Positions 25,320 through 62,784 are shown, numbered from the stretch's first letter. The stretch: 64,000 bases of DNA from Candidatus Rokuibacteriota bacterium (GCA_016184365.1 JACPCW010000088.1:12068-76067), one strand, 5' to 3'. Made by a program: numbers and translations. Notes: generated from the letters alone by a model not told the origin.

Positions 25320-25348
25320 TAAGACGGGGCGAACCTGCCACGAGGTTC
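25320..25348 (-). promoter_or_regulatory. ECF-type promoter candidate GAACC-N17-CGTCTTA
   Basis: Read on the minus strand; the -10 ends about 60 nt upstream of ATG 25260. Confidence 0.65.
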
Positions 25349-25548
25349 ACGGGACCCACACCTTTCCGCGTCACCGATGAATCGAATCTGCAGGGCCCCC
25401 GATTCGCTCCTACGGACATGAGCTGGCTGGCGTGGCTTCCTGGTGCAGGGGCGCTGATCGCCCTGTTCGTTGTGTGGGACCTGATCTCCTGCGGCGGGAG
25501 ACGAGGCAGGGAGTCCTTCTTCGACCGACCAGACCGGGACGCGCCGTG

Positions 25549-26892
25549 ATGGCGGAGCCGACACGCGTCGTGATCCTGGGCGGCGGATTCGGGGGCACTG
25601 CCGTGGCCCGCCGGCTCGAGCGGCTCGTTGGCCGAGACGCGTCGGTCGAGATCACGCTGGTCGATCGCGAGAACTTCGCCCTCTTCACCCCGCTGCTGCC
25701 CGAGGTCCCGTCCGGGGCGGTCGAGCCCAAGCACGTGGTGTCACCGCTCCGGGCGCTGCTGCGGCGCACGATCGTGCGTCACGCCGAGGTCCGCAGCATC
25801 GACTTCGCGAAGCGGACGGTGCTGGTGTCCCACTGCCCGAGATGTCGCATTGCCGTGCTGCCCTGGGATCACCTCGTCCTGGCTCTCGGGTCGGTCCCGA
25901 ACTTCTTCGGGCTGCCGAATGTCGCCGCTCACGCGCTCACGATGAAGAACCTGGCCGACGCCTCGGCGCTCCATGCCCACGTCGTCGACAAGTTCGAGCA
26001 CGCCGACATGGAGGAGGACCCCGCGGTCCGGCGCGAGCTCCTGACCTTCATCGTGGTCGGCGGCGGCTTCGCGGGCGTGGAGACGGCCGGGGAGCTGAAC
26101 GACTTCGTCCGGGGGGCGGGACCCTTCTATCCCCGCCTGGGCCGCGACGATGTCCGCGTCGTCCTCGTGCACCTGGGCTCGCGCATCCTGCCCGAGGTCA
26201 GCGAGCCACTCTCGGCGTACGCGTTGACGAAGCTCCGCAGCCGTGGCGTCGACGTCCGGCTGGCAACGCGGATCGACGAGTACACCGGAACACTTGCGCG
26301 CCTGTCGTCCGGCGACGAGATCCCGAGCCGGACGCTCGTGTGGACGGCCGGGATCGTGGCGAATCCGGTGCTCGGCGCGCTCGGCGTGCCGACCACGTCG
26401 GCGGGAAAGGTGGAGGTGACGGACACCCTCGAGGTGAAGGGCTGCCGGGGAGTGTGGGCGCTCGGCGACTGCGCGGTGGTTGTCGATCGGGCTACGGGCC
26501 GGCCATACCCGCCGACGGCCCAGCACGCGGTCCGGCAGGGGCGGCGCGTGGCCGACAACATCGTGGCGACGATCCGAGGACGGGCCTCGACGCCGTTCGC
26601 GCACAGGCCCCTGGGCATCCTCGCCGGGCTTGGTCGCCACTCCGCGGTGGCGGAGATCCTCGGCTTCCGGTTCTCGGGGTTCTTCGCCTGGTGGCTCTGG
26701 CGAACCGTCTATCTCCTCAAGCTCCCGGGCCTCGAGCGGAAGGTGCGGGTCGCGCTGGACTGGACGCTCGATCTGTTCTTCCCGCGCGACATCGTCTACC
26801 TCCGCCCGCTGCACCTGTCGCAGGGGTCCGGACCGGTCGGGGGAGAGGTACCTGCGCACGAGCCGGACCCTCGAGGCTCCGGCCCGCGCTGA
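25549..26892 (+). CDS. ndh: type II NADH dehydrogenase (NDH-2)-like FAD oxidoreductase
   Basis: RVVILGGGFGGTAVARRL and FIVVGGGFAGVETAGEL dinucleotide folds, plus a C-terminal membrane-associating helix region. Confidence 0.8.
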   Translation: MAEPTRVVILGGGFGGTAVARRLERLVGRDASVEITLVDRENFALFTPLLPEVPSGAVEPKHVVSPLRALLRRTIVRHAEVRSIDFAKRTVLVSHCPRCRIAVLPWDHLVLALGSVPNFFGLPNVAAHALTMKNLADASALHAHVVDKFEHADMEEDPAVRRELLTFIVVGGGFAGVETAGELNDFVRGAGPFYPRLGRDDVRVVLVHLGSRILPEVSEPLSAYALTKLRSRGVDVRLATRIDEYTGTLARLSSGDEIPSRTLVWTAGIVANPVLGALGVPTTSAGKVEVTDTLEVKGCRGVWALGDCAVVVDRATGRPYPPTAQHAVRQGRRVADNIVATIRGRASTPFAHRPLGILAGLGRHSAVAEILGFRFSGFFAWWLWRTVYLLKLPGLERKVRVALDWTLDLFFPRDIVYLRPLHLSQGSGPVGGEVPAHEPDPRGSGPR

Positions 26893-26900
26893 GGGCGTGC

Positions 26901-27101
26901 ATGAGCCTCTGCGCATCGTGCGGGGCCCAGCTCTCGGGTGACTCGAGCCTGTGTTCACATCATCTCCTTACGCACGGAGACGACTGGGCGGTCGCGAACC
27001 GCATCATGTGCGACCTCCTCCACCGGAAACAGGCACCGCCCGATGTTCCTTCGAACGAGCCGAGCGACCCCAGCCGCGCGTCCGTGGCCGAGGCCGCGTA
27101 A
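26901..27101 (+). CDS. small hypothetical protein with CxxC..CxHH motif
   Basis: 66 aa starting MSLCASCGAQLSGDSSLCSHH. The stop abuts the next ATG (TAAATG). Confidence 0.4.
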   Translation: MSLCASCGAQLSGDSSLCSHHLLTHGDDWAVANRIMCDLLHRKQAPPDVPSNEPSDPSRASVAEAA

Positions 27102-28013
27102 ATGTCCGCCGTCCAGATGGCGCGCTGGTCCCGGCGAACGACAGTCGACCTCCCGGCAGCGCTACACCGGTCCTTCGGCGCGCTGGACCACCGGTTGAGA
27201 CAGGCGGTCGCGCGCTTCCTCAACCGCCGCGTCACCACGGACGAGCTCAAGGTCCCGAACGACATGACGCAGCTCTACCGGCGCATCCGTAGAGGGGATG
27301 TCGTGCTGGTGGAGGGGGAGCTTCGCGTCAGCCAGCTCGTCAAGTACGTCACGCAGAGCCAGTGGAGCCACAGTGCCCTCTATGTCGGCGACGAGCTCCT
27401 TCGCCGCGGGGGGCCGTTGCGCGAGCAGGCCCTGGCCAATTTCGGCGAGCGGGCTGATCGGCTCCTCGTCGAGGCGCTGACCGACGAGGGCGTGATCGCC
27501 GCCCCTCTCGCGAAGTACCGCGCACACAACCTCCGCCTCTGCCGACCCTCGGGCCTCCATCCGGCCGATCTCGAGCGGGTCATCGACTCCGTCGTGGTGG
27601 ATCTCGGCAAGCAGTACGACGCCCGGAACTTTTTCGAGCTGGCCCTGCTGCTGCTGGCGCCGGCGCGGCTCGGCCCGCTGAAACGATGGACGGCGCGGAC
27701 ATGCCTTGGCAATTGCACCGAGCTTCAGGTGATCTGCTCCGGCATGATTGCCAAGGCCTTCCAGCGGGTGGGCTATCCCATCCTGCCTGAGCGCCGACAC
27801 TACTCGCAGATCCTGCCGCGCGACTTCGACTTGAGCCCGAACTTCCAGGTCATCAAGGCCAGCGCCATCGACGACGGCGGAGTCGATGCCCTCGACGCCC
27901 AACTCGAAGGACAGATGGAGACCGTCGCACAGCGACAGGAGGAGCGAGGGGAGCGCCGAACAGCATGCTGGCCCTTCTCGTGTGGAAGGGGGATGCGTGC
28001 GGCCGGGTGCTGA
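27102..28013 (+). CDS. hypothetical protein, possibly permuted papain-like (YiiX/NlpC-P60-type) hydrolase
   Basis: 303 aa; GDVVLVEG..WSHSALYVG..CSGMIAKAF pattern. The functional call is weak. Confidence 0.5.
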   Translation: MSAVQMARWSRRTTVDLPAALHRSFGALDHRLRQAVARFLNRRVTTDELKVPNDMTQLYRRIRRGDVVLVEGELRVSQLVKYVTQSQWSHSALYVGDELLRRGGPLREQALANFGERADRLLVEALTDEGVIAAPLAKYRAHNLRLCRPSGLHPADLERVIDSVVVDLGKQYDARNFFELALLLLAPARLGPLKRWTARTCLGNCTELQVICSGMIAKAFQRVGYPILPERRHYSQILPRDFDLSPNFQVIKASAIDDGGVDALDAQLEGQMETVAQRQEERGERRTACWPFSCGRGMRAAGC

Positions 28014-28081
28014 TGGGGCGTGGCGTGATGCGTGTGTCGGGAGAGGGCGTCGCGCCATGAACCTGCCAGAGGCGAGGTCCT

Positions 28082-30927: not shown

Positions 30928-31131
30928 CTACATCGCGAGCCTCCTCAGCACGTCGCGGTCGATCTTCTCGATCAGCTCGACGTTGACCATCCGCCCCTCG
31001 CTGATCGTCACCGCCAGGCGGCCGAATCTGCGTCGTTTCACCCGGGCGAGCCCGTCGAGCAGGAGCATCGCCTCCCGCTCGGTGACGCCATCGGGCAGAT
31101 TCAGGCCCACGCTCATTCGATCGACGGCCAC
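30928..31131 (-). CDS. small YezD/DUF2292-like protein
   Basis: 67 aa; GRLAVTISEGRMVNVELIEKID pattern. Confidence 0.5.
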   Translation of the reverse strand: MAVDRMSVGLNLPDGVTEREAMLLLDGLARVKRRRFGRLAVTISEGRMVNVELIEKIDRDVLRRLAM

Positions 31132-31295: not shown

Positions 31296-31919
31296 TCATC
31301 GGGCTGGCGGAAGGAGTGGGGCCAGCTCCTTGCGGACGAACAATCGCGCCCGGTGGAGGCGCGACTTCACGGCCGGCACGCTGAGCCCGAGCGCCCTCGC
31401 GACCTCCTCGTTCGGCAGCCCCTCCACATCTCGCAGCACCAGCACGGCGCGGTACTCGTCGGGGAGGGCCGCGATCGCGCGTTCGAGCCCTGCCCGCATC
31501 TCCGCCGCGACGGCTGGATTTTCCAGATCGCGCGACCAGTCGACGACCGGTCCGATGTGGCGCCCCTCGGCGTCGAAGGCCGGCAGGACCGCGTCGAGCG
31601 CGATCTCCTGCCTGGCGCTGCGCCGGGCGCGCACGCGCTCGTACGCGGCGTTCGCGGCGATGCGGTAGAGCCAGCTCGAGAAGGCGGCCTCGCCCTTGAA
31701 GGTGCCGATCTTGCGGGCCACCGTCAGGAGGACGTCCTGCGCGATCTCCTCGGCATCTCGCGGGTCACCGACGACCCGGACTGCGACGCGGTAGATCCAC
31801 CCGCCGTAGCGATCGACGAGCTCCTCGACGGCCTTCGCCTCGCCGCGGCGCAGACTCTCGACGAGTCCACGGTCCTCGCTCCGGATGGCCGCACGCCGTC
31901 GCTCCGCCGACTCATCCAT
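31296..31919 (-). CDS. RNA polymerase ECF sigma-70 family factor
   Basis: Region 2 DAEEIAQDVLLTVARKIGTF..FSSWLYRIAANAAYE; region 4 LPDEYRAVLVLRDVEGLPNEEVARALGLSVPAVKSRLHRAR. Confidence 0.9.
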   Translation of the reverse strand: MDESAERRRAAIRSEDRGLVESLRRGEAKAVEELVDRYGGWIYRVAVRVVGDPRDAEEIAQDVLLTVARKIGTFKGEAAFSSWLYRIAANAAYERVRARRSARQEIALDAVLPAFDAEGRHIGPVVDWSRDLENPAVAAEMRAGLERAIAALPDEYRAVLVLRDVEGLPNEEVARALGLSVPAVKSRLHRARLFVRKELAPLLPPAR

Positions 31920-32021: not shown

Positions 32022-32348
32022 TCATGGCTCGTACCCACCCCGCAGCAGGTCCTGGAGGAACGCCGAGCAGTTGACGACGATCAGGCGCGGCGTCCCAACC
32101 CGCCGGAACAGGGCGACGCCGCGGCCGTCGATGAACGTCACGCCCCCGAGGTCGAGGCGGATGGTCCGTGCTTCCTGGAGAGCCTTGCAGCACTCGCGCT
32201 CCAGCACGTCGACCCACTCGGAGACGACGCGGCCCTCCACCTGCAGCGTGACGGCGTCCGCTCCCGGTTCCGTCGTCTTCGTGATCCGCAGCACAGCGTC
32301 CCTCTCTCGTCTGGAATGTCGCGTGATCGCGCATGGGGATGACGGCAT
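32022..32348 (-). CDS. STAS domain protein (anti-sigma-factor antagonist-like)
   Basis: TLQVEGRVVSEWVDVLE...IRLDLGGVTFIDGRGVALF pattern. Start uncertain (32348 or 32390). Confidence 0.65.
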   Translation of the reverse strand: MPSSPCAITRHSRRERDAVLRITKTTEPGADAVTLQVEGRVVSEWVDVLERECCKALQEARTIRLDLGGVTFIDGRGVALFRRVGTPRLIVVNCSAFLQDLLRGGYEP

Positions 32349-32545
32349 GCGCTGTGCCAGACCCGGGCAATACGGTGCGGTGCCCTGCATGTGCGCGCGG
32401 TGGCTAGCAGTTCCTACGAGTCGAGGCAGGGAAGGCGAGCGCAGGGCCGCACAGGGCGTCCCGATATCTTGGGAGCTTCACGACATGTTGGGACGGCGCC
32501 GTGAGGAGGACCTGGGGCCCGAGGCCGGCACCGGCTCCCAGCTAG

Positions 32546-32574
32546 GAATCCTCCGCACGAGCCGTTCCGTCGTA
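32546..32574 (+). promoter_or_regulatory. ECF-type promoter candidate GAATC-N17-CGTCGTA
   Basis: About 70 nt upstream of mini-ORF ATG 32648. Confidence 0.55.
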
Positions 32575-32647: not shown

Positions 32648-32743
32648 ATGATGACCGGTTCCGCTCTGCGGTGTCCGGTGTGTGGATGCGACCGGCGAAT
32701 CCTCTGTTCGCGTTGCCGGGAGCAGCGCTGCGCGAGACGGTGA
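32648..32743 (+). CDS. 31-aa Cys-rich (zinc-ribbon-like) peptide
   Basis: MMTGSALRCPVCGCDRRILCSRCREQRCARR contains 7 Cys. AGGGGGA Shine-Dalgarno. The stop overlaps the next ATG (TGATG). Confidence 0.4.
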   Translation: MMTGSALRCPVCGCDRRILCSRCREQRCARR

Positions 32744-33001: not shown

Positions 33002-33198
33002 ACCCCCCAGCGCTCGGACGCGCCCCGGCACAGCCGTGGCGCGCCTCGACCGCGGGATTCGTTCACGGGCACTGAGCCGCGGCGACGCGCGCGAATCGAA
33101 GCAGAACGAGGGTGCTGGACGAAGAGACCGTTGCGCCGACTCCCGGGGTGAGACGCCGGGAGGCACGACCGCAGGGATCGAGATCAGGAGGCGCGTCG

Positions 33199-33855
33199 AT
33201 GAAGGTTACGCTCCAAGCTCGTGTCGGGCTCGCTGTCGCTCTCGTGCTCGTCGCGTTCGCCAGCCGGGACGCCGCCGCCGGCGCGCCCACCGAACAGTTT
33301 CGCCACTACGCCGACCGGGCCCTCGAGGTCCTGGGCGCTGCCGATCTCCAGAAGGCGAGCGCCACCGAGGAGCGCCGGGCCGAGCTCCGCAGGACCGCCA
33401 GCGACGCCTTCGACTTCGGGGAGATGACGAAGCGCACGCTCGCCCGGCACTGGCAGGTGCGCACGCCGGCCGAACGCGAGGAGTTCATCGCGCTCTTCGT
33501 CTCCCTCCTCGAGCACGCCTACCTCGGCAAGATCGAGCTGTACCGCGGCGAGAAGGTGAGCTATGTCGGCGAGTCGATCGACGGCGACCAGGCGACCGTG
33601 CGCACCAGGATCGTGACCAAGCAGGGCGCGGAGGTCCCGGTCGACTATCGGATGCACCGCCGGGGCGACCGCTGGCTCGTCTACGACGTCGCCGTCGAGG
33701 GGATCAGCCTCGTCGGGAACTATCGCACGCAGTTCGACCGGATCATCCGGCGGTCGTCGTACACGGAGCTGGTCGCGAAGCTGAGGTCGAAGGAGTTCCC
33801 GGTCCCCGAGGCCGCGAGCGCGAAAGGGCCCTCGCGCGACGGCCAGGCGCGATGA
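33199..33855 (+). CDS. MlaC/Ttg2D-like periplasmic lipid-binding protein
   Basis: AGGAG Shine-Dalgarno and a signal peptide. FDFGEMTKRTLARHW..REEFIALFVSLLEHAYLGKI..WLVYDVAVEGISLVGNYRTQF. Confidence 0.8.
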   Translation: MKVTLQARVGLAVALVLVAFASRDAAAGAPTEQFRHYADRALEVLGAADLQKASATEERRAELRRTASDAFDFGEMTKRTLARHWQVRTPAEREEFIALFVSLLEHAYLGKIELYRGEKVSYVGESIDGDQATVRTRIVTKQGAEVPVDYRMHRRGDRWLVYDVAVEGISLVGNYRTQFDRIIRRSSYTELVAKLRSKEFPVPEAASAKGPSRDGQAR

Positions 33856-33890: not shown

Positions 33891-35090
33891 TTACCTGCGG
33901 GCTGCCGACGAGGCGAGCTCCGGCTCGACGATCGCGGAGATCACGTGCACCGCCGCCGTGATGCCCGCCCACACGACCGCCGCGGCGAAGGAGAAGGCCG
34001 GCGTCCCGAGGAGGAAGCCGGGGAGGAAGATCCAGGCGTAGATGTTGCGGCGGCCGCTGATCCTTCGAAAGCGGCGGAGAAACGAGCTGACCTCGGCCAG
34101 GTTCCGGCCGCGAAAGCGCGAGACCCAGATGTTCGCCAGGTTGTCGGTCACGTCGAACGCCACCATCGCCAGCGCAGCGCCCCAGGCCCACGGATGCCCG
34201 TGCGTCGACAGGCGGAACCCGAGAGCGACGTACCACGAGTTCTCGTAGAAGAAATCGAGCACGTGCTCGAGCTCACCGGGCTTCGAGGTCATGCGCTTGA
34301 TCCGGGCGAGCTTGCCATCGACGCCGTCCAGCACCTCGACGACGATCGCGAGCAGGACGCCAACCCGCAGCCACCCCGTCGCGAACAGGCCCGCCACCCC
34401 GAAGCCGAGGAGGCCGGTGGCCGCGGTCACCTGGTTGGGCGTGATCCGCGTGCGGCAGAGCAGCCGTACCAGGACATTCTCGAACGTGGGGTCGAAGTAT
34501 CGAGCCGGCAGGTCCAGCGTGCGCTTCTGTACGTGATCGAGAAGGACCCTCCAGCCTTCCTCGGCATCCCGGTCCGAGGTCACGCGAAGGAGGTGCACCG
34601 GGACGTCTCCGCGCTGCTCCTTCCAGTACGCCGGAAAGTCGGTGATCGCGACCACGGCGGCGGAGGCGAGGGAACGGGGCGGCTCGAGCAGGATCGTTCG
34701 CCCGACCGTTCCCAGGAGCTCGGGCTCCCTGGCGTTCGCCGTGACGAGCGTGTCGGCCGTTCGGGCGGCGAGCCAGGAGAGGATTCGCGGATCGACGAGA
34801 AGATCGGCGCCGATCACGAGGAAGCGCTCGCGCAGGAAGCCGCTCGCCGCCCGCAGCATCGTCCACGGGTCTCCCGGAGCGACACGCACGACGCGGACCG
34901 GCGTGGCGACGCGGCAAGAGGGCTCGGCGGGCCCAGCGCGAGGACCGCGGACGATCAGGATCTCCTGCAGGCTTCCGAGCTCGGAGAGCTGTCGCAGCAG
35001 CCGCTCGATCAGCGAGAGGCCCCCGACCTCGCGTGACGGGTCTCCCCCATCCGGGACGCAGACGATCACCGCCTGGGTCACGGGGGTCAT
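33891..35090 (-). CDS. nucleotidyltransferase-like domain fused to CDP-alcohol phosphatidyltransferase-like membrane domain (degenerate motif)
   Basis: ATGA overlap with the radical SAM stop. The motif reads DGVDGKLAR-x8-G, but the two downstream Asp of the consensus are not in register (GELEHVLD). Confidence 0.7.
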   Translation of the reverse strand: MTPVTQAVIVCVPDGGDPSREVGGLSLIERLLRQLSELGSLQEILIVRGPRAGPAEPSCRVATPVRVVRVAPGDPWTMLRAASGFLRERFLVIGADLLVDPRILSWLAARTADTLVTANAREPELLGTVGRTILLEPPRSLASAAVVAITDFPAYWKEQRGDVPVHLLRVTSDRDAEEGWRVLLDHVQKRTLDLPARYFDPTFENVLVRLLCRTRITPNQVTAATGLLGFGVAGLFATGWLRVGVLLAIVVEVLDGVDGKLARIKRMTSKPGELEHVLDFFYENSWYVALGFRLSTHGHPWAWGAALAMVAFDVTDNLANIWVSRFRGRNLAEVSSFLRRFRRISGRRNIYAWIFLPGFLLGTPAFSFAAAVVWAGITAAVHVISAIVEPELASSAARR

Positions 35091-36007
35091 CGGCGGCCCT
35101 CGATCCCCTGCCGGCGCCATTCGTCATAGGCGGACGCGGTTCGCGCGCAGCCGATGCTGCACATCTCGCGGCATGGCTTCACCGCGTGGAACTGTCGCTT
35201 CAGGTCGTCGAGCGAATAGTCCATCAGGTCCTTCGAGAAGAGTTCCCGGCTCTGGCTGCACCAGTGGACCTGGCCGAACTCGTCGACGTAGAGGTACCGG
35301 GCTCCCGCCCGGCAACGGAACGGAGCCGTCCCCGCCTGGATCAAGCGCTCCCGATAGTCGCCTGCCTCCCGGCCCGCCCGTCCGAGGATCCGCTTCACCT
35401 CGTGGTACGCCGCCAGCTCCTCCGGAGACAGCTTCACGCGGCCGAGCTCGTCGTGGATGAGTAAGACTCTCGGCACGAACCCGTGGCTCCGCGCGAAGCG
35501 CACGACCTCGATGGCCTCCTCCGGCGGCGCGCTGCCGATGACCGCGCTGAGGACGACCCGGAAGCGCGCCGACCGCGCGAGCATCTCGAGGCGACCGCGC
35601 AACGAGTGGAGCACCTTCAGGGTCGTCCCGTTGCGGCGGACGCCGTCGAGGCTCAGTTGGAGATCGGTCAGTCCGGCCGCGTTCAAGCCTTCGATCGTCT
35701 CATTCGTCAGGCGGTACCCGTTGGTGATCATCTGGCGGCGGCGGAAGCCGAGCTCGCGCATCCGGCGAACGAGCTTCAAGAGGTCCGGATGGAGCGTCGG
35801 CTCCCCACCGGTCAGACACACGACCCAGGCGCGCAGATCGCGGAGCTTTCCGAGACGCTGATCGAGCGTGACGAACGGGACGGGGTCGGAGACCGTGTCG
35901 TACTCGAAGCAGTACCCGCAGGAGAGGTTGCAGCGGCGGGTGACGACGAGCTGGGCGAGGAACGGGCCGTATCCCAGCCACTGCGCCCAGGAGAGTGGAA
36001 CGGCCAT
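35087..36007 (-). CDS. radical SAM protein (small, ~306 aa)
   Basis: CNLSCGYC (Cx3Cx2C), GGEPTLH, and C-terminal extra Cys (CRAGARY..HWCSQ..CREMCSIGC). Confidence 0.85.
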   Translation of the reverse strand: MAVPLSWAQWLGYGPFLAQLVVTRRCNLSCGYCFEYDTVSDPVPFVTLDQRLGKLRDLRAWVVCLTGGEPTLHPDLLKLVRRMRELGFRRRQMITNGYRLTNETIEGLNAAGLTDLQLSLDGVRRNGTTLKVLHSLRGRLEMLARSARFRVVLSAVIGSAPPEEAIEVVRFARSHGFVPRVLLIHDELGRVKLSPEELAAYHEVKRILGRAGREAGDYRERLIQAGTAPFRCRAGARYLYVDEFGQVHWCSQSRELFSKDLMDYSLDDLKRQFHAVKPCREMCSIGCARTASAYDEWRRQGIEGRR

Positions 36008-36031
36008 GGCGTCCGATCTTCCGGCGGAGCC

Positions 36032-50948: not shown

Positions 50949-51056
50949 TCTGGCTCGTCCCGCAAGGGCGTGAAATGCCCTGGTTTTGGCCGGACGCGTA
51001 ACATTGCCCTTCGCCGCCCGAATTCTCTATTGTCCTGCTCGCACGGACGTGCCCCG

Positions 51057-52799
51057 ATGCGCCTGAGCGATGACTTCCACAAGCTCCTGGACGCTGCGCC
51101 CGACGCCATGGTGCTGGTCGACGGCACCGGGCGCGTCGTCCTCGTCAACGCCCAGACCGAGCGGCTCTTCGGCTACACGCGAGACGAGCTGCTTGGCCAG
51201 CCCGTCGAGATGCTAGTGCCTGAGCGCTTGCGCGAGGTCCATCTCGCCCATCGCGCGGCGTACTTCACCCATCCGGGCGTCCGGCCGATGGGGGCGGGGC
51301 TCGAGCTCTACGGCCAGCGGAAGGACCGGCGCGAGTTCCCCGTGGAGATCAGCCTGAGCTCGCTCGATCTCGGCGGCGCCACCGTCGCGGTCGCCGCCAT
51401 CCGCGATGTCACCGAGCGGAAGAAGGCCGACGCGAAGTTTCGCGGGCTGCTCGAGGCGGCGCCCGACGCGATGGTGGTCGTCGACCGAGAAGGCCGGATC
51501 GTCCTCGTCAACGCCCAGACCGAGCGCATGTTCGGCTACGAACGGCACCAGTTGCTCGGACAGGGGATCGAGGTCCTCGTGCCGGAGCGCTTCCGCACGG
51601 CGCACGTCGGTCATCGGGGCGGCTTTTTCACCGCGCCCAGCGTCCGGCCGATGGGGGTGGGGCTCGAGCTCCATGGTCGGCGGCAGGACGGCAGCGAGTT
51701 CCCCGTGGAGATCAGTCTCAGCCTGCTCGAGACGGAGGAGGATCTCCTGGTCATCAGCGCCGTCCGCGACATCACCGAGCGGAAGAAGGCGGAGGAGCTC
51801 GAGCGCGTCAAGGCCCGGCTGGAGGAGGAGAACACCTACCTCCAGGAGGAGATCAAGACCCAGCACAACTTCGAGGAGATCGTCGGGCAGAGCTCGGCGG
51901 TTCGACGGGCACTGAGGGCCCTCGAGACGGTCGCACCCACGGACGCCTGCGTCCTGGTCCTCGGCGAGACCGGCACGGGCAAGGAGCTGGTGGCGCGCGC
52001 GCTCCACGATCTGAGCGCGCGGCGGCGCACGCCGCTCGTCAAGGTGAACTGCGCCGCCATCCCTGCCGGACTCATCGAGAGCGAGCTGTTCGGCCACGAG
52101 CGGGGAGCGTTCACCGGCGCCATCTCCCGCGCGATCGGGCGGTTCGAGCTGGCCGACGGCGGGACGATTCTCCTGGACGAGATCGGGGAGCTGCCCCTGG
52201 ACTTGCAAGCGAAGCTGCTCCGGGTCCTCCAGGACGGGGAGTTCGAGCGAGTGGGAAGTGCCAGGACGAACAAGGTCGACGTGAGAGTCGTCGCGGCCAC
52301 GAACCGGGACCTCGAGGCCGCCGTGCGGGAAGGGCGATTCCGCCAGGATCTCTATTACCGCCTGAACGTCTTCCCGATCCGGGTCCCTCCACTTCGCGAG
52401 CGGAAAGAGGACGTGTCGCTCCTCGCCAAGTATTTCGTCGCGCGGTACGCGGCGAAGTTCGGGAAGAGGATCGACGCGATCCCGCGAACGGCGATGGACG
52501 CGCTGCGCGCCTATCCCTGGCCCGGCAACGTGCGAGAGCTCGAGAACGTGATCGAGCGCGCGGTGATCCTGAGCCAGGGGCCCGAGCTCAAGCTCGGCGA
52601 GTGGCCACCCCGCGGAGTCGTCCCCCGCGAGGCGCGACTCCTGACGCTCGACGAGGTGGAACGGGACCACATCACGGCCGTGCTGGACCTCACGGGGTGG
52701 CGCGTGAGCGGGGCGCAAGGGGCGGCGACGCTCCTCGGACTCAAGCCGACGACCCTGGAGGCGAGGATGAAGAAGCTCGGGATCCAGCGCAAGCCGTGA
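51057..52799 (+). CDS. sigma-54-dependent transcriptional activator with two PAS domains
   Basis: Two near-identical PAS repeats (APDAMVxVD..[15 protein letters not shown]). AAA+ domain with [14 protein letters not shown] and ESELFGHE. C-terminal Fis-type HTH. Confidence 0.9.
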
Positions 52800-52849: not shown

Positions 52850-52878
52850 GAATCGCTCCGGCCTTTCACCCCGTCTTA
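52850..52878 (+). promoter_or_regulatory. ECF-type promoter candidate GAATC-N17-CGTCTTA
   Basis: The -10 ends 13 nt before ATG 52892, and no Shine-Dalgarno lies between them. Confidence 0.6.
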
Positions 52879-52891: not shown

Positions 52892-53554
52892 ATGAAGGTT
52901 GTGCCGATCCTCATCGCCGGTCTCCTCGCGCTCGCCCTCGCCGGCGGGGCCGTGTTCGCCCTCTCCGGTGGCGTGCCGGTTCCCGCGCCGCAGGGCGCGC
53001 TTGCGTCGGAGAGCAAAGGTGGGCCGGCGGGCTCGATGGCCGCGCCAACGGCGTCCCCGCCGCGCGCGGCGCGCACGGGCCCCGTGCTCAGGCTCGACGA
53101 TGCCATTCGAGAGCTCGACCTCATCCGGCCGTCGCGCGAGAAGTTCGCCGACGACTTCACGCTCGCGCTCGCCGACGGCACGCGCTTCCGGCTGAGTGAG
53201 CATCGCGGCAAGGCCGTCCTCGTGAACTTCTGGGCGACGTGGTGTCCGCCGTGCCGCGAGGAGATGCCGGCGATGGAGCGGCTGTATCGCCAGCACAAGG
53301 ACCGCGGCCTCGTCCTCGTGGCGGTGTCCGTGGACGCCGATCCGGCCGTGGTGACGCCGTACCTGCGCGAGAACAAGCTGAGCTTCCCCGTGGCCCTCGA
53401 CCCGAAGATGGACGTGGCCGACACGTACGGGGTGCGCGCGCTGCCCTCGAGCTTCGTCGTGGACCGCGAGGGACGGGTGACCGTCCTCGCCCTCGGCCCG
53501 CGCCGCTGGGACAACGACGCGGCGCACTCGCTCGTGGAAGCGCTCACGCACTGA
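52892..53554 (+). CDS. TlpA/ResA-like membrane-anchored thiol:disulfide oxidoreductase
   Basis: N-terminal anchor, then VLVNFWATWCPPCREEMP and GVRALPSSFVVD motifs. Confidence 0.85.
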   Translation: MKVVPILIAGLLALALAGGAVFALSGGVPVPAPQGALASESKGGPAGSMAAPTASPPRAARTGPVLRLDDAIRELDLIRPSREKFADDFTLALADGTRFRLSEHRGKAVLVNFWATWCPPCREEMPAMERLYRQHKDRGLVLVAVSVDADPAVVTPYLRENKLSFPVALDPKMDVADTYGVRALPSSFVVDREGRVTVLALGPRRWDNDAAHSLVEALTH

Positions 53555-54441: not shown

Positions 54442-57400
54442 TCATTCGGGCGTCGACGCGATCTTCGCGTGAAGGCGCGTCGGCTCCTTGGCATCGATCA
54501 GCGGCGAGAGCGCCGGCATCAGGATCCCCAGTAACCGCACAGGGAGGGCACTGGTGAACTCGTACTTCGCGGCGTTCGGGCCGGGAACATACGCGGTCAC
54601 GGTGCCGAAGAAGCGATCGTCGATGAGGAACGCGAAGGTCGCCACCCGGTTCACCACGCGGGACTCGATCAGTCCGCCCTGCGCTCCGTACGTGTTGTAG
54701 CGGTGGTCCCCCGTGCCGGTCTTGCCGCCCACGACGTGCGTGACGCCCGCGTCGCGCCGGAGGGCCTGGTTCAGGCTCCGCGCGGTGCCCTGTTGCACCA
54801 CGCCGACCAGAGCGCGGAGGACCACCGCCGCGATCTCCGGGCTCATGACCTGTCGCCCCGCCGGCGCCGAGGAGCTGAGCCGCGTCTCGTACGGGGTGTC
54901 CGCGGCGAAGTGGAGCTGCTCCACGAGCACCGTGGGAGAGCGCACGCCATCATTGAGGACGATGCCCATGAGCTCGGCCAGGGCAGCGGGCCGGTCGCCG
55001 GAGCTCCCAATCGCGGTGGCCAGGGAAGGGGTCAGGGACGCGAACGGATAGCCCAGACGCTGCCAGCCGCGATGGATCTCCAGGAAAGCCTCGAGCTCCA
55101 GCAGGGTGGCGATGCGAGTGTCTTGAGCGTTGCGGCGCCGGCTCGTGAACAGCCAGCGATACACCTCCTGGCGCTCTACGGCACTGGCGCCGAGGACCTG
55201 CGAGAGGTCGGCGCGCGGGTGGCGACGCAGATAGGCCACCAGCCACAGCTCGAGGGGATGGACCCGCGCGATATGGCCTCTGTCCATGAGGGAGAAGCGG
55301 GCGGCCGCGTACTTCTCGAACAGCCCCGCGATCGCGCGGTCCGAGAGGGTGGTCCCCGGCAGACGCTGCACCAGGAAGGCCTCGAGGGCCTCGACACCGG
55401 CATCCGGGTTCACGGAACGAAAGACGGTCGCCAACCCGGCGGGTGTGGGATGGAGCCCGCTCAGCAGGAGGCCCAGGGCTTGTTCGGGAGTCTTGCCCTG
55501 GTATTTCCGATAGAACCGCCGGAGGAACTCGCTGCCCTCACGTTCGGCGAAGCGCGTGAGGTAGGCGTGCCGGCGAGGGTCGGCCGGGTCTTCCAGCACC
55601 CGCGCGAGGGAACCCGGTGCTTCGAAGAGGGCGTGATCGACGATGTCCCGCATCAACCGAATGAACACGAGGTTCACGGAATCGCGAAAGCCCTCGCGGA
55701 CCGACGGCACGCGGGCGTTGTCGTCCGGGTTGAAGTTGTGGAAGGTGTGGAGCCCGCCTCCGGTGAAGAAGGCCTGGTCGGGGCTCGCCGAATAGCGGCG
55801 ATCCATCGCCGCCTCCAGCATCGCGGTGAGGCCCGCGCCAGGGGCCTGGGCGAGATACTCGACGGCCCAGGCGGTGAGGCGGTCGCGGGGAGGGATCTTC
55901 ATCGCGCGCAGCTGCTTCGCAGTCAGGTCGGCATAGCGGTGGTGCAGGGTGGCGATGACTTCCAGGTAGGTGATGAGCGTGCGCAGCTTGGCCGTGGAGC
56001 CGAGGTCGAGCTTCGCTCCCGCGTTGATGTCCAGGGGCTGGTCGAAGTTGTCCGTCTGCACCCGGAGCCAGTTGACGCCGGGACCCCGTTCGTAAAGCGT
56101 GACGCTGTAGATCATCCGGGCCGGGTCGCCCCGCTCCAGCAGGTGGAATCCCTTCAGCCCCAGAGCCTCTACAGTGGTGGGATTCCGCAGGGACCGTAGC
56201 ATTCGTGTCACGGCCTCCTGCGAGGGCCCGTCGAGCGTGCTCCGCACGGTGAGATCGAGGCGGTCCAGATCGTACAGGGCGGGCACACCGAGCATCGTGC
56301 TGAGCCTGGCGCGAACGAGATTCGCTCCCTTGCGCTCGCTGAAGTCGGCCGCCACGAGCTGGCGTCCCATCTGGAAATCAAGTCCCCGCCCCAGGGCAGC
56401 GTCCCGCAAGCTGCCGTCGATGATCCCCGCCTCGGCCGCGATCCGCAGATAACTGTCGCTCAGCGCATCGAGCGCCTGGCGATTTTGGACGAGATAGTAC
56501 GAGGGGCGACGTGCGGCCAAGATCAAGCTGAGCACCTGTTTGTACGCTCGCGCGCGGGTCTCGGCGGAGGCCGAGGAATCCGTCAATAGACGGTTGGCTT
56601 CGACGACGTCGACTCCATACCAGGTCCACAAGCCGTCGCCGAGGCCTTGGACCTCGCCGAACCCGGGGGCGGCGGCCAGCGGCACCGAGTTGAGATAGTC
56701 CACCACGATTTGGCGTCGGGCGGGCAGGGTGTCCGCTCCGCCCTGGTAGGCGCGCAGGCTGGCGGACAGCATCTGCCGCAGCTTCTCCCTGGCCGAGTGG
56801 GTGCGGCCGTCAGGGGAGTGGCGGAACTTTTCGAGCTGAGTCGCCAGCGTGCTGCCTCCGATCACCCGGCGCTGATCGCCCACGAGAGTCAGCGCGTTGA
56901 TTCCCACGGCTTTGCCCAAGCGCTCCCATTCGACGGCCGGATTACGGCGTGGGTGGCGGGTGTCCAGCAGTTGCCGGTCCTCGACGAAGAGGAGCGTCAT
57001 CACCACCAGCGGCGGGATCGTCTCGAAGCGTTCATAAATTCGTGCTGGGACGCGGACCCTGTAGAGGAGCCTCTGGTCGCGATCCGCCACGTGCAAACCA
57101 GCCTGGGTCTTCTCGCGATAGATGGGAAACAGCCCCGACCCCGCCGCGTGTTGCAATCCGGCGGACAGCCGCGCCTGGCTGTCGATGCGGTAGCCGGAGG
57201 CTCGCAACCGCTTCAGAAAGTTCGGCAAGCGCGCGTAGCCGAGCCGGACATCGTACGGACCGTTGTCGGGAAAGTGCGGACTCGGGTTGGGACCGGACTC
57301 CAGGTGGAAGCGCAGTCCGCGAGCCAGCCAGGAAAACGTGTGGGCTTCGAGGTTGGCGGTCCGCACCTCCCAGAAGATGGCGAGGAGCACCAAGACGCTG

Positions 57401-57528
57401 ATGACCGACCACCGGAGGATCCGCGTCCGGAGGCCCGCCGTCCGTGGTGTCGTGGAAACGACATCGGCGTCGACGCCTCTGGCGGGAATGGACCGTCCCA
57501 GGACTGAATCCATGGCAGTCGTCTTCAC
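54442..57528 (-). CDS. large membrane-anchored glycosyltransferase-51 (transglycosylase) protein with PBP-like C-terminal domain
   Basis: LLFVEDRQLLDTRH and GGSTLATQLEK GT51 motifs, a long insert, and C-terminal GGKTGTG (KTG). Confidence 0.7.
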   Translation of the reverse strand: MKTTAMDSVLGRSIPARGVDADVVSTTPRTAGLRTRILRWSVISVLVLLAIFWEVRTANLEAHTFSWLARGLRFHLESGPNPSPHFPDNGPYDVRLGYARLPNFLKRLRASGYRIDSQARLSAGLQHAAGSGLFPIYREKTQAGLHVADRDQRLLYRVRVPARIYERFETIPPLVVMTLLFVEDRQLLDTRHPRRNPAVEWERLGKAVGINALTLVGDQRRVIGGSTLATQLEKFRHSPDGRTHSAREKLRQMLSASLRAYQGGADTLPARRQIVVDYLNSVPLAAAPGFGEVQGLGDGLWTWYGVDVVEANRLLTDSSASAETRARAYKQVLSLILAARRPSYYLVQNRQALDALSDSYLRIAAEAGIIDGSLRDAALGRGLDFQMGRQLVAADFSERKGANLVRARLSTMLGVPALYDLDRLDLTVRSTLDGPSQEAVTRMLRSLRNPTTVEALGLKGFHLLERGDPARMIYSVTLYERGPGVNWLRVQTDNFDQPLDINAGAKLDLGSTAKLRTLITYLEVIATLHHRYADLTAKQLRAMKIPPRDRLTAWAVEYLAQAPGAGLTAMLEAAMDRRYSASPDQAFFTGGGLHTFHNFNPDDNARVPSVREGFRDSVNLVFIRLMRDIVDHALFEAPGSLARVLEDPADPRRHAYLTRFAEREGSEFLRRFYRKYQGKTPEQALGLLLSGLHPTPAGLATVFRSVNPDAGVEALEAFLVQRLPGTTLSDRAIAGLFEKYAAARFSLMDRGHIARVHPLELWLVAYLRRHPRADLSQVLGASAVERQEVYRWLFTSRRRNAQDTRIATLLELEAFLEIHRGWQRLGYPFASLTPSLATAIGSSGDRPAALAELMGIVLNDGVRSPTVLVEQLHFAADTPYETRLSSSAPAGRQVMSPEIAAVVLRALVGVVQQGTARSLNQALRRDAGVTHVVGGKTGTGDHRYNTYGAQGGLIESRVVNRVATFAFLIDDRFFGTVTAYVPGPNAAKYEFTSALPVRLLGILMPALSPLIDAKEPTRLHAKIASTPE

Positions 57529-57574: not shown

Positions 57575-57603
57575 TATGACGGAAGCAGCTATGCCCCGGA
57601 TTC
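57575..57603 (-). promoter_or_regulatory. ECF-type promoter candidate GAATC-N17-CGTCATA
   Basis: The plus strand reads TATGACG-N17-GATTC. The -10 ends about 47 nt upstream of ATG 57528. Confidence 0.6.
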
Positions 57604-57886: not shown

Positions 57887-58050
57887 TTCGTCACCTCCCT
57901 TCGTCGATGCACGTGATCGGCGCCGACCGGGAATGGAGACGTCACGGCGCGCCGGCGCGCCATACTTCAAACCGCCGGGCGCCCCGCGTCAAGGGCAACT
58001 GCTCTTTCGGCGAATCCTCGGAGGCGCGGTCTCCGTCTCATCCGCGGGTT

Positions 58051-58155
58051 GAACACGCCCTCGAGCTGTTCGCGTCCATCTACGGCGCCGAGGCGGGCAA
58101 CGTCGCGCTCAAGGCGCTCGCCGTGGGCGGCGTCTTCGTCGATGGCGGAATCGCA
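58051..58155 (+). pseudogene. glucokinase (Glk) internal fragment
   Basis: [35 protein letters not shown] matches the conserved Glk C-terminal region. There is no N-terminal part and the sequence diverges after GGIA. Confidence 0.6.
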
Positions 58156-58203
58156 CTGAAAAAATCCGCGATGAGCTGTGAACGTCGACGACGGAGGTAG
58201 GGC

Positions 58204-59574
58204 ATGGATCGCTACGATTTGCTCGTGATCGGCGGCGGCGCCGCCGGGATCAATGCACTCAAGCAGGGCTTGAAGCTGGGCGCGCGCGTGGCGCTGATCG
58301 ATTCGGGGCCGCTCGGGGGCGCCTGCATCAACCGCGGGTGAATCCCGAAAAAGACCTTGGTAAGGTCTGCGCGAGTTCATCAGCTGGTACGACACGCGGC
58401 CAACTTCGGCACGAAGACCGGCGCGGTGACGCTCGACTGGGACGCGGTCGTTCGTCGCCAGCGCGAGATCGTTCGCGAGCTCCAGCCGCCCCCCGCCGCG
58501 TTCGAGCGCTCGGGCGCCAGGGTCTACCTCGCCGACGCGCGCTTCGTGGACGCCCATACCGTCCGGGCGAACGGCGCGAGCGTCCAGGGCGACAAGATCG
58601 TCATCGCCGCCGGCTCCGAGCCCGTGGTGCCGGCGGTGGCCGGGCGCGACCTTGCGATCACCTCCGACGAGATCCTCTTCCTGCCGACGTTCCCCGAGAG
58701 CCTGGTGCTGGTGGGCGCCGGCGTCATCGGGCTGGAGATGGCGGGCGCCTTCGCCGACCTCGGCTCGCGCGTGACCGTGATCGGCCGCGACCCTGAAATC
58801 CTACCGGCGTTCGACCGCGATGTCGCCGCCTACATCCGGACGATCCTCGAGGGCCGGGGCGTGACCTTCTACCTCGGCGCGTCGCTCGAGCGGCTCTCGG
58901 GCACGACCGGCGCAGTGACGGCCCACGTCAAGCGGGACGGTCGCGAGCTCGTGGTCACCGCGGCGCAGGTCTGTCTCGCGGTCGGCCGGCGCTACAACCC
59001 GAAGCGCCTGGGGACCGACGCGCTCGGCCTGGTGATGGGGCGGCTCGGCCTCCGCGTGAGCGAGCACCTCAGGACGTCGCTCCCCCACATCTACGCGGCG
59101 GGCGACGCGGCCGGCAACCAGCAACTCACGCCGACCGCGGCGTACGAGGGGAAGCTCGCCGCGCTGAACGCGCTCAAGGGTGACGTCGCCCGTCCCGACT
59201 ACAGCGTCGTGCCGCAGACGATCTTCACCACGCCCGAGATCGGCGGGGTCGGTCTCACCCACGCCGAGGCGCTCGCCCGCGGGGTGAAGTGCCACGTCGC
59301 CACGCACGACATGCGTGGCGCCTCCAACGGGAGGGCCACCGGGGAAGACGCGGGCTATCTCAAGCTCGTGTTCGACGGGGCGACGGAGAAGGTCCTCGGC
59401 GTCCAGATGGTTTCCTACGCCGCCGCCGAACTGATCCAGCTCGCCGCCCTCGCCATCAGGACCGGCGCCGATGCGCACCTCTTGTCGAGCCAGCTCTCGA
59501 TCCACCCGAGCCACGGCGAGCGGTTGATCAAGGTCTTCGGCCACGAGCACCACGAGGTCTGCGAGCCCGAATAG
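58204..59574 (+). CDS. class I pyridine nucleotide-disulfide oxidoreductase (dihydrolipoamide dehydrogenase/mercuric reductase-like) with in-frame UGA at the second active-site Cys (candidate CxxxxU selenoprotein)
   Basis: GGAGGT Shine-Dalgarno. MDRYDLLVIGGGAAG..LGGACINRG-TGA-IPKKTL aligns with the family signature GGxCxNxGCxPxK. The TGA at 58339-58341 is in frame with the 405-aa ORF 58357-59574. Confidence 0.7.
58352..58368 (+). promoter_or_regulatory. candidate bacterial SECIS hairpin (17 nt)
   Basis: AGACCTT-GGT-AAGGTCT begins 10 nt after the UGA. Confidence 0.55.
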
Positions 59575-62256: not shown

Positions 62257-62308
62257 GGGCCGCCACGGAGCGGGCCGGCGGCCGATCCGCCGCGCGCGTG
62301 CCGGACGT

Positions 62309-62665
62309 CTACCGAGCCGTCCAGCGCACCGTCTTCTCGTCGGACGTGAGGACGACTTCGGGCTCTCCGTCGAGGACGCCGATCATCACTCGCGTGGTGC
62401 CGTTCTTGTCGTTGAGTTCCATCATGGGCCGCCCATCACCGGCGAGGCCGAATGACGCGTAAGGCGTCCCGTGCCCATCGACCACGACGAATCGCTGCGC
62501 CGCGACGACGGGAGGACCCGATGGCCCGAGCCCCATGAACAGCAGCAGAGCGGCAACCAGGACAGACAGCGTTCCGAACGCCCTCCACAAGCGTATCTGC
62601 CGCTCGAGTCGGTCGAGGCGTTCCATCACGGCATCGGTGATCGGCGCTCGCATGATGTTCTCCAT
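62309..62665 (-). CDS. membrane-anchored hypothetical protein
   Basis: 118 aa: a short helix LDRLERQIRLW, one TM, then a beta-rich domain. Confidence 0.55.
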   Translation of the reverse strand: MENIMRAPITDAVMERLDRLERQIRLWRAFGTLSVLVAALLLFMGLGPSGPPVVAAQRFVVVDGHGTPYASFGLAGDGRPMMELNDKNGTTRVMIGVLDGEPEVVLTSDEKTVRWTAR

Positions 62666-62708
62666 CGCCCTGGATCGGCCTGCGTTCCTTCCTTTGCGTG
62701 CGCTTCCG

Positions 62709-62737
62709 TAAGACGGGTGGGACTGCGAGCAGGATTC
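62709..62737 (-). promoter_or_regulatory. ECF-type promoter candidate GAATC-N17-CGTCTTA
   Basis: The plus strand reads TAAGACG-N17-GATTC. About 44 nt upstream of ATG 62665. Confidence 0.6.
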
Positions 62738-62755
62738 GGTAAGGGACGATCTCGC

Positions 62756-62784
62756 GAATCGTTCCTGCCACCGCGTCCGTCCTA
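62756..62784 (+). promoter_or_regulatory. ECF-type promoter candidate GAATC-N17-CGTCCTA
   Basis: Back-to-back with 62709-62737. About 120 nt upstream of ATG 62904. Confidence 0.55.

Follow-up and report, generated by a model that had tools for sequence, protein, structure and literature searches.

The promoter consensus of E. coli sigma-E is GGAACTT-N16-TCTGA/TCAAA, and that of B. subtilis SigW is TGAAAC-N16-CGTA. ECF sigma factors are usually encoded beside their regulators and target genes, and autoregulation is common but not universal among them, with some groups lacking it (PMC7826278). The stretch of DNA analyzed here (64,000 nucleotides, hereafter the window; G+C approximately 69%) comes from an uncultured soil bacterium of the Candidatus Rokubacteria, the genome of which was assembled from a metagenome. 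A recurrent element in this window, GAAYC-N17/18-CGTCNYA, shares with RpoE/SigW promoters the bipartite build, an AAC/AAT-type −35, a (C)GTC/TC-type −10 and a fixed spacing of 16–18 nt, but differs from them in its GAATC −35 box and 17-nt spacer. The presence of envelope genes among its targets is a further likeness to the RpoE/SigW systems. These elements are probably ECF (group 4) sigma promoters read by the family of the ECF sigma factor encoded at 31296–31919, with the sigma control proposed below.

The pattern GAAYC-N17-CGTCNYA had 10 exact matches in the window against 0.20 expected (mean of 100 shuffles with dinucleotide content preserved, in which the maximum was 2 copies), while the N18 pattern matched once and the N16 pattern had no match in the window. 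In total, 11 exact copies (10 N17 and 1 N18) and one variant with GCTC in the −10 box were obtained. All nine copies listed in a preliminary description of this DNA were recovered at the same coordinates and strands, but nine was too low as a total, the copies at 50028–50056 (−) and 58012–58040 (+) and the variant at 25384–25412 (+) having been missed. The count of the variant is not significant by itself, because the relaxed pattern that fits it is expected once by chance. When the final NYA was dropped from the pattern, only two extra matches appeared (23751, −, and 46361, −), both within ORFs, and a position-weight-matrix scan placed the 11 N17 sites at 19.4–25.4 bits, with the next best match at 13.9 bits. 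The extended consensus was g-GAATCc-N14-YC-CGTC-t-Y-A-cgg, with T at position 4 of the −35 box in 10 of the 12 copies and with mutually unrelated spacers between the boxes. We take GAAYC to be the −35 box, recognized by sigma region 4, and (C)CGTC-N-Y-A to be the −10 box, recognized by region 2, with a presumed optimal box spacing of 17 nt. Transcription would be expected to start a few bases past the −10 box.

As had been claimed for the first nine, every one of the 12 copies was intergenic and faced the adjacent gene, with a start codon 6–164 nt downstream on the same strand. The probability that a random oriented site would have this distance and direction was p = 0.04 per site, some of the start codons in the test being our own choice and those of the P460, NPCAAK and 73-aa genes being backed by homologue N-termini. 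No copies were found within supported coding regions of the window. The proposed ECF-type anatomy was likewise borne out by two boxes at a fixed spacing of 17–18 nt, a variable spacer, strict orientation and promoter-like distances. Approximately 12 transcription units, spanning 38 kb, lie behind the 12 predicted promoters.

The leftmost copy, GAACC-N17-CGTCTTA at 25320–25348 (−), lies 60 nt upstream of a cytochrome-P460/NPCAAK-repeat gene (24550–25260), the start of which is backed by a P460 homologue in L175. It stands back-to-back with the variant, GAATC-N17-GCTCCTA at 25384–25412 (+; 19.4 bits), located 20 nt upstream of NDH-2 (25432–26892), downstream of which are a Cys-rich 59-aa ORF (26904–27083) and a C92 peptidase gene (27102–28013). 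The copy GAATC-N17-CGTCGTA at 32546–32574 (+) is divergent from the STAS-sigma operon and is followed by a 31-aa Cys-rich ORF (32648–32743) and MlaC (about 33196–33855); the same layout of motif, small ORF and MlaC was found in L172. Two back-to-back copies of GAATC-N17-CGTCTCA, with −35 boxes 13 nt apart, stand 70 nt upstream of a nine-gene phospholipid head-group operon running from 42939 down to 33891 (copy at 43009–43037, −) and 6 nt upstream of the GTG of an MMPL/HpnN-like RND gene at 43085–45922 (copy at 43051–43079, +).

Further along, GAACC-N17-CGTCGTA at 50028–50056 (−) lies 34 nt upstream of a 73-aa ORF (49773–49994; homologue in L165), which is followed by a 119-aa ORF (49386–49745), and GAATC-N18-CGTCATA at 50123–50152 (+) lies 41 nt upstream of the gene of a secreted 123-aa protein (50193–50564), followed by a 107-aa ORF and a sigma-54 activator gene (50970–52799). 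The gene of a TlpA-like thiol:disulfide oxidoreductase (52892–53554) begins 14 nt after GAATC-N17-CGTCTTA at 52850–52878 (+), and GAATC-N17-CGTCATA at 57575–57603 (−) is 62 nt upstream of a transglycosylase/transpeptidase (class A PBP-like) gene (54442–57513). The largest distance, 164 nt, separates GAATC-N17-CGTCTCA at 58012–58040 (+) from a MerA/glutathione-reductase (GR)-like flavoprotein gene (58204–59574), with a glucokinase C-terminal remnant in between; this cytoplasmic flavoenzyme has an in-frame TGA at its active site and its sequence is read as that of a Sec-containing reductase. The last two copies, back-to-back with −35 boxes 18 nt apart, are GAATC-N17-CGTCTTA at 62709–62737 (−), 56 nt upstream of the gene of a membrane-anchored 114-aa protein (62309–62653), and GAATC-N17-CGTCCTA at 62756–62784 (+), 120 nt upstream of the gene of an exported NPCAAK-repeat protein (62904–63170), the L177 orthologue of which has a variant motif upstream.

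The predicted targets in the window include envelope lipid functions (MlaC, the MMPL/RND exporter and the phospholipid head-group operon), the PBP, thiol/redox functions (the TlpA-like protein, the MerA/GR-like reductase and NDH-2), exported Cys-repeat proteins (NPCAAK-repeat proteins and cytochrome P460) and several small proteins. The designation “envelope regulon” in the preliminary description fits only in part, because the predicted targets extend to thiol, redox and cytoplasmic genes: the envelope targets were retained, and the flavoenzyme, NDH-2, Cys-rich ORFs and the operon ending in the sigma-54 activator come in addition. Targets in relatives include a zinc anti-sigma factor, a TrxB-like reductase and an RpoD-like sigma, and the NPCAAK protein, MlaC and a small DUF2292-like protein stand behind the motif there too. 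P460 and the Cys-rich ORF likewise have homologues in the same neighborhoods of relatives. Read in this way, the set would be a stress regulon of an ordinary type, though a well-supported one.

The proposed reader of the motif, P0001 (31296–31919, −), is a protein of 207 aa belonging to the B family. Its earlier assignment as an ECF sigma factor was confirmed by Pfam matches to Sigma70_r2, Sigma70_r4_2 and Sigma70_ECF, comprising sigma-70 regions 2 and 4 only, and by the NCBIfam sigma70-ECF superfamily model, which it passes with 97 bits (cut-off 42.9). Its best scores against more specific models were to PRK11922, SigW and RpoE, a likeness to the RpoE/SigW systems, but unlike those proteins it stays far under the equivalog cut-offs (PRK11922, 151 vs. 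204; SigW_bacill, 113 vs. 243; RpoE_Sigma70, 115 vs. 236). Unlike in the RpoE/SigW systems, too, no RseA- or RsiW-type membrane anti-sigma gene lies beside it. Orthologues of P0001 are 64–78% identical. All members of the family have the same sigma-4 helix, VAAVKSRLHRAR, in keeping with the invariance of the GAATC box.

Around these sigma orthologues (64–78% identity), GAAYC-N19-TCNYA gave 18 matches in 122 kb, with at least one in 8 of 9 lineages, compared with one match in 208 kb at 26 loci of a paralogous ECF family (42–59% identity) and none for the strict motif in 1.3 Mb of other loci; all related loci were retrieved with the 31296–31919 sigma as query, with paralogue-family and HpnN-like loci as the only controls, so this co-occurrence is partly built in. 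The closest relative, L170 (sigma 78% identical), had no motif copy in 4 kb. Conservation at orthologous loci, named in the preliminary description as a check, was evident: relatives share both boxes but not the spacers, and in their orthologous intergenic regions the boxes are the sole conserved islands in otherwise diverged sequence. When the zf-HC2/DUF6789 intergenic regions of five lineages were aligned, the invariant columns were concentrated in four boxes, which make up a divergent promoter pair. The −10 box is loosened in L167 and L177 to CATC/ACTC/CCTC followed by N-T-A, leaving TC..TA as the sole constant part, a likeness to sigma-E promoters.

In relatives the motif always precedes a small RsrA-like zinc anti-sigma gene that neighbors the sigma gene, and in several lineages it is present on both sides of the B-type sigma gene. 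The encoded protein (77 aa) has an HX3CX2C motif and an N-terminal Cys and matches the RsrA model with E = 1e-8; in L164, L165, L167, L175, and L177 its zf-HC2 gene and the sigma gene converge. The zinc anti-sigma (ZAS) motif has been defined previously, and many ZAS proteins are redox-insensitive (PMC3177212). We propose that the sigma of the relatives would be paired with this 77-aa RsrA-like zinc anti-sigma factor, the gene of which would be driven by the motif promoter and thereby provide negative feedback. At the 26 paralogous loci no adjacent anti-sigma gene was found, with a zf-HC2 match in L109 only. The pairing with a soluble RsrA-like protein resembles the SigR-RsrA and SigH-RshA systems of Actinobacteria, which respond to thiol-oxidative stress, and thiol:disulfide and flavoprotein disulfide reductases among the targets, as well as a −35 box resembling GGAAT, are further similarities to SigR-RsrA. 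In contrast to SigR-RsrA, the −10 box here is CGTC, not GTT, the anti-sigma gene of the relatives is convergent and has its own promoter instead of being co-transcribed with the sigma gene, and no zf-HC2 or other anti-sigma gene was found in the window, nor any zf-HC2 gene on a contig equal in length to that of the window.

The cognate sigma was left open in the preliminary description. Since the motif travels with the P0001 family and the neighboring anti-sigma gene across lineages, it is now partly narrowed down: judged by co-occurrence, the RpoE/SigW-like ECF family of 31296–31919 is most likely the reader. P0067, a paralogue with 67% identity encoded elsewhere on what is probably the same contig, is possibly an additional reader. 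It is less likely, though deserving consideration, that a different ECF sigma (an A-type ECF, P0067 or another genomic ECF) reads these ECF-type promoters and that 31296–31919 is a mere neighbor. The motif is absent upstream of the sigma operon, the window is without an anti-sigma gene and A-type ECF genes share an operon with STAS in L164, L168, L170, and L175, all of which would suit such a reader; yet the motif is present without an A-type gene within 10 kb in the window, L165, L167, and L177, and its placement around the B-type gene and invariably before the convergent zf-HC2 gene points back to the B family. The existence of P0067 could also be taken to favor a different sigma, but P0067 is a member of this family, with the invariant sigma-4 helix, and if it were the reader, the main explanation would only be modified and not truly challenged.

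The sigma gene itself would be controlled by another route. The first gene of its operon encodes a STAS-domain protein of 90 aa (32022–32294, −) with orthologues in L164, L168, L170, and L175. As the preliminary description had noted, the motif is absent upstream of the sigma and STAS genes, the matrix scan finding no site of at least 9 bits on the minus strand at 32295–32545; the classic signature of autoregulation is therefore missing, a difference from the RpoE/SigW systems. Instead, a sigma-54-type −24/−12 element, TGGCAC-N5-ATGC, lies at 32344–32359 (−; TGGCACAGCGCATGC at 32345–32359), 50 nt upstream of the STAS start, and two tandem TCCCAANATNTCG boxes at 32462–32493 (−), about 105–135 nt further upstream, are presumed to be binding sites of a sigma-54 activator. 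Alone, the −24/−12 element is statistically weak (1 match in the window vs. 0.18 expected, with at least one in 16% of shuffles). Equivalent elements precede STAS in L164, L168, L170, and L175 and the sigma gene in L084, and the TCCCAANATNTCG boxes recur upstream of STAS in L164, L168, L170, L175, and L176. A PAS-PAS sigma-54 activator (bEBP), assigned by Pfam, is encoded by the last gene of the operon behind copy 50123 (50970–52799, +), and its AAA+/HTH part is 73–78% identical to the orthologous activator encoded directly upstream of STAS in L164, L168, and L175. At the sequence level, the GG-N10-GC element, upstream activator boxes and a bEBP are thus all present for the STAS-sigma operon, and this conserved promoter with its upstream activator sites may explain the absence of the motif there.

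From these conserved elements we infer that the STAS-sigma operon would lack autoregulation and instead depend on a sigma-54 promoter that has two activator sites upstream, and the activator gene behind copy 50123 would close a positive loop. HrpL is described as an ECF sigma dependent on RpoN and on the bEBP HrpS (PMC2957411), and the predicted arrangement resembles the HrpR/HrpS – sigma-54 – HrpL cascade of plant-pathogenic Proteobacteria in that the ECF sigma gene has no ECF promoter of its own but a sigma-54 −24/−12 element, upstream sites and a cognate bEBP. It differs in the sigma family, phylum and regulon, which are unrelated (stress/envelope vs. type III secretion), in the bEBP gene standing behind an ECF-type promoter and in the STAS gene leading the operon, and the sigma-54 dependence here is deduced from sequence only. 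Between STAS and the B-type sigma gene, L164, L168, and L170 carry a further ECF gene (A type, about 30% identical), and the sigma-54-type STAS operon of L175 contains the A type only, so the link of sigma-54 to the B-type sigma would not be universal.

Eight of the 12 copies form four divergent back-to-back pairs, and on one strand a pair such as 43009–43079 reads as a long interrupted inverted repeat, as might be expected if the bipartite element were the operator of a DNA-binding repressor or activator at divergent promoters. We regard this as very improbable, because the other four copies are single (32546, 52850, 57575, and 58012), the boxes are neither palindromic nor direct repeats, and the two members of a pair are 13 to 66 nt apart, against a fixed 17–18 nt between the boxes of each copy; every copy is also oriented to its downstream gene at promoter distance, with boxes that fit the ECF pattern (AAC/AAT −35 and CGTC −10). 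A chance or compositional artefact, a dispersed repeat or a mobile-element remnant is scarcely credible, as nothing but the high G+C would favor it, none of the 100 shuffles exceeded 2 copies against the 10 observed, the unrelated spacers and flanks imply that the copies were not made by duplication, and the boxes are kept in orthologous intergenic regions elsewhere, the remainder of which has diverged.

Ten exact matches to GAAYC-N17-CGTCNYA were found in the 64-kb window, whereas 100 dinucleotide-preserving shuffles averaged 0.20 and never gave more than 2. The N18 version of the motif had a single match in the window, at 50123, and the N16 version had none. This confirmed and extended the observation in the preliminary description: the nine copies reported there were all correct, but two exact ones had been overlooked, at 50028–50056 (−) and 58012–58040 (+). 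A twelfth copy was a variant, GAATC-N17-GCTCCTA, at 25384–25412 (+); it sits 20 nt ahead of the start codon of NDH-2 and forms a back-to-back pair with the copy at 25320. Because one chance match to the relaxed pattern is expected, the case for this variant rests on its position and not on its count. The copies shared the extended consensus g-GAATCc-N14-YC-CGTC-t-Y-A-cgg; since their spacers had nothing in common, they are not duplications. Omitting the last three positions of the motif added just two matches, both within ORFs. In a matrix scan of the window, the 11 N17 sites scored 19.4–25.4 bits and the next best position 13.9 bits. Weak sites at 23751–23776, 46361–46386, 48140–48168, and 21738–21766 (all −), which scored at most 14 bits or were devoid of the NYA tail, fell within ORFs or in the poorly resolved 20.5–22.5 kb region and were treated as chance matches.

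All 12 copies were intergenic and gene-facing, as had been proposed for the original nine, with a start codon 6–164 nt downstream of each. On a gene map based on third-position G+C and on Pfam/NCBIfam searches, the intergenic share of the region 22.5–64 kb was approximately 13.5%, and a random oriented 29-mer would be both intergenic and followed by a start codon in this way with p = 0.04, some of the start codons having been chosen by us; those of the P460, NPCAAK, and 73-aa genes matched the N-termini of homologues. Eight copies formed four back-to-back divergent pairs, with 13–66 nt separating the −35 boxes. The first 25 kb of the window (ABC transporter, aconitase/PrpD, and PEP-mutase genes) contained no copy.

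Among the downstream units, NDH-2 was succeeded by a Cys-rich ORF of 59 aa and a C92 peptidase, and a Cys-rich ORF of 31 aa preceded MlaC. An MMPL/HpnN-like RND exporter was accompanied by a DAG-kinase-like gene, and a secreted protein headed a unit that continued with a 107-aa ORF and ended in a sigma-54 activator. A nine-gene phospholipid head-group operon at 33891–42939 (−) and two units of small proteins also lay behind motif copies. The other copies preceded genes for an NPCAAK-repeat cytochrome P460, a further NPCAAK-repeat protein, a TlpA-like redoxin, a MerA/GR-like flavoprotein, a class-A-PBP-like protein, and a membrane-anchored protein. The earlier interpretation as an ECF-controlled envelope regulon was therefore only partly supported: the ECF-promoter part stood and envelope genes were among the targets, but thiol/redox chemistry and regulation were represented too, so that the set is not purely envelope. 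Long leaders were considered as known RNA elements and rejected, as they had no Rfam match; neither a tRNA scan nor an Rfam search at gathering thresholds detected RNA genes anywhere in the window.

Homologues of the ECF sigma gene (31296–31919, −) and of the MMPL gene placed the window in Candidatus Rokubacteria (Methylomirabilota). The motif recurred at orthologous loci, which had been suggested as a check: in 122 kb of unique sequence chosen around sigma orthologues at 64–78% identity (loci L084, L164, L165/166, L167, L168, L170, L172, L175/176, and L177), GAAYC-N19-TCNYA had 18 matches, distributed over 8 of the 9 lineages; as in the window, many of them were paired back-to-back. A metagenome scan with the sigma as query gave mostly a paralogous ECF family at 42–59% identity; by contrast, 26 loci of this family (208 kb), used as a control, gave one motif match. 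These paralogous loci had no adjacent anti-sigma gene, and a zf-HC2 match was found only in one of them, L109. No strict motif copy was found in 80 loci (1.3 Mb) around MMPL/HpnN-like homologues from species-representative genomes, but these homologues were at most 47% identical and their loci thus serve only as a negative control.

Five related loci (L164, L165, L167, L175, and L177) carried a divergent promoter pair, with a zf-HC2 gene (77 aa) that converged with the sigma gene on one side and a DUF6789/VTT operon on the other. When these five regions were aligned, the invariant columns clustered in the four boxes of the pair. The −10 box in L167 and L177 read CATC, ACTC, or CCTC followed by N-T-A, so that the core is TC..TA, like that of sigma-E-type promoters. 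Gene context was also shared: L172 had the order motif, small ORF, MlaC, as in the window; an NPCAAK protein in L177 was preceded by a variant motif; the 62-aa protein gene at 30928–31116 had a homologue in L168 with a motif of its own; and homologues of P460 and the Cys-rich ORF were found in L175 and L172. A motif copy also preceded DUF6789-VTT operons ending in an RpoD-like sigma gene (L164, 1194–4179; L165, 10918–12853), whose product was 486 aa in L164 (regions 1.2–4) and a 146-aa fragment with region 1.2 only in L165. Hence, the ECF regulon may extend to the activation of a further sigma factor.

The reading of the motif as an ECF promoter is strongly supported by its anatomy, the statistics, and the comparative footprinting. 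As to which sigma factor recognizes it, we infer that it is read by the family of the sigma at 31296–31919, because motif and sigma gene co-localise, a motif-driven anti-sigma gene is conserved beside the sigma gene, the paralogous ECF family contrasts, and members of the sigma's family share an invariant sigma-4 recognition helix; the loci were obtained with this sigma as query, so the sampling is biased. The zf-HC2 protein of the relatives has HX3CX2C plus an N-terminal Cys (the zinc anti-sigma motif is defined in PMC3177212) and matched the RsrA model with E = 1e-8, under the model's cut-off. A tblastn search of the window revealed no zf-HC2, DUF6789, or VTT gene, and no zf-HC2 homologue was found on a contig of the window contig's length (87,298 nt). 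A paralogue, P0067, a 188-aa ECF sigma 67% identical to that of the window, is recorded on a contig of exactly this length and is absent from the window; it appears to belong to the remainder of the window's contig, and it may share or own the motif.

In agreement with the preliminary description, no motif was found upstream of the operon formed by the STAS gene (32022–32294, −) and the sigma gene. An autoregulatory copy was found neither upstream of STAS nor ahead of the small gene that follows the sigma, which fits with reports that some ECF groups are non-autoregulated (PMC7826278). A sigma-54-type −24/−12 element, TGGCACAGCGCATGC, was located at 32344–32359 (−), 50 nt ahead of the STAS start. 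By itself this element is weak evidence (0.18 matches expected; at least one in 16% of shuffles), but it is supported by conservation: equivalent elements preceded STAS in L164, L168, L170, and L175, and in L084 one preceded the sigma gene. Two tandem TCCCAANATNTCG boxes (32462–32493, −) lay approximately 105–135 nt upstream of the sigma-54 element. Among 178 loci, the TCCCAANATNTCG box occurred upstream of STAS in L164, L168, L170, L175/176, and the window's own strain, and elsewhere as two stray single matches. A PAS/GAF sigma-54 activator gene was immediately upstream of STAS in L164, L168, and L175, and these activators were 73–78% identical over the AAA+/HTH part to that of the window (50970–52799, +), which is the last gene in the operon behind copy 50123. 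The two small genes ahead of the activator in this operon had no homologues in the related loci. As a caveat to a link between sigma-54 and the window's sigma, which is of the B type, L164, L168, and L170 had an additional ECF gene, of the A type, between STAS and the B-type gene, and in L175 the A type was the only ECF gene in the STAS operon.

Conservation of the sigma-54 element, the boxes, and the activator, together with the position of the activator behind copy 50123, suggests a circuit in which the activator and sigma-54 would turn on the STAS-ECF operon. The ECF sigma would then drive the regulon, including the activator gene, closing a positive loop; in relatives, another ECF promoter would express the RsrA-like zinc anti-sigma, giving a negative loop. 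The HrpS/sigma-54/HrpL system is a parallel in design (PMC2957411), and the likely sigma-54-to-ECF cascade would be a second, phylogenetically distant design of the HrpL type. Taken as a whole, the picture would be of a compact regulon island in a Rokubacteria clade with an unusual circuit: a PAS-domain activator (bEBP) and sigma-54 would control STAS-ECF, whose sigma would act on a dozen densely packed and often back-to-back promoters, with the bEBP loop and, in relatives, the loop through an orphan zinc anti-sigma. The targets would form a hitherto undescribed envelope/thiol/metal defence set comprising exported NPCAAK proteins, the P460 fusion, a MerA/GR-like reductase with selenocysteine, and a pathway dedicated to phospholipid head groups. 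This reading is tentative and rather doubtful.

Rokubacteria are abundant in soil and, to our knowledge, have never been cultured. Literature searches on their promoters and regulons and on this motif gave nothing experimentally defined or relevant. An ECF regulon recognized by its promoter motif is of a textbook kind and not surprising; the value of the present set is that Rokubacteria now have a first well-defined prediction of a promoter and its regulon, together with an interesting candidate sigma-54/ECF circuit. It ties together approximately 12 transcription units, which are thereby predicted to act together in one stress response; many of them encode uncharacterized proteins, such as those with NPCAAK repeats, the Sec-flavoprotein, DUF6789, and the small Cys-rich ORFs. 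Parts for heterologous testing are the sigma factor, the promoters, the anti-sigma factor, and the bEBP with its upstream activator sites.

In the MerA/glutathione-reductase-like flavoprotein gene (58204–59574, +), for which mercuric reductase 5x1y was the top match among solved structures, an in-frame TGA (58339–58341) occupied the position of the second Cys in the CxxxxC redox motif (GGACINRG*IPKKTL). It was followed, after 12 nt, by a hairpin, AGACCTTGGTAAGGTCT (~58354–58370), and L177 had the same TGA and an identical hairpin, with bases close by differing. The gene probably specifies a selenocysteine enzyme and carries a SECIS element. Between copy 58012 and this gene lay a C-terminal remnant of glucokinase (58042–58197, +), and L177 had a 66-aa glucokinase fragment in the equivalent position.

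Exported proteins consisting largely of NPCAAK-type Cys repeats were encoded in the window (24550–25260, −; 62904–63170, +) and in L177 (9338–9607, an orthologue); one combined a cytochrome P460 domain with NPCAAK repeats fused at both ends. NPC(G/A) repeats also occurred in an L165 DUF6789 protein (10980–11543), and literature searches for NPCAAK gave nothing relevant. MerR/MerF/MerE and ArsP genes in the neighbourhoods of relatives hint at metal or thiol chemistry. Behind motif copies, the 31-aa ORF (32648–32743, +) contained 7 Cys and was separated from MlaC by approximately 450 nt with no recognised feature, and the 59-aa Cys-rich ORF (26904–27083, +) was 51% identical to a 71-aa ORF in L172. 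Two small paralogues (49386–49745 and 63529–63960, both −) shared F.(V/M)EW…G(Y)(V/I)HN…V(R/H)(L/V)RVE(V/I)(L/F)D…G…F(F/L)VVSVP and had no Pfam matches. The nine-gene operon, in which several ORF calls overlap by 100–300 nt and start codons are uncertain, included an HAD hydrolase, a nucleotidyltransferase, a class-III aminotransferase, a GFO/IDH/MocA oxidoreductase, two CDP-alcohol phosphatidyltransferases, an LPG-synthase-TM protein, and a radical-SAM enzyme, and may direct the synthesis of an unusual phospholipid head group based on an amino sugar or a cyclitol.
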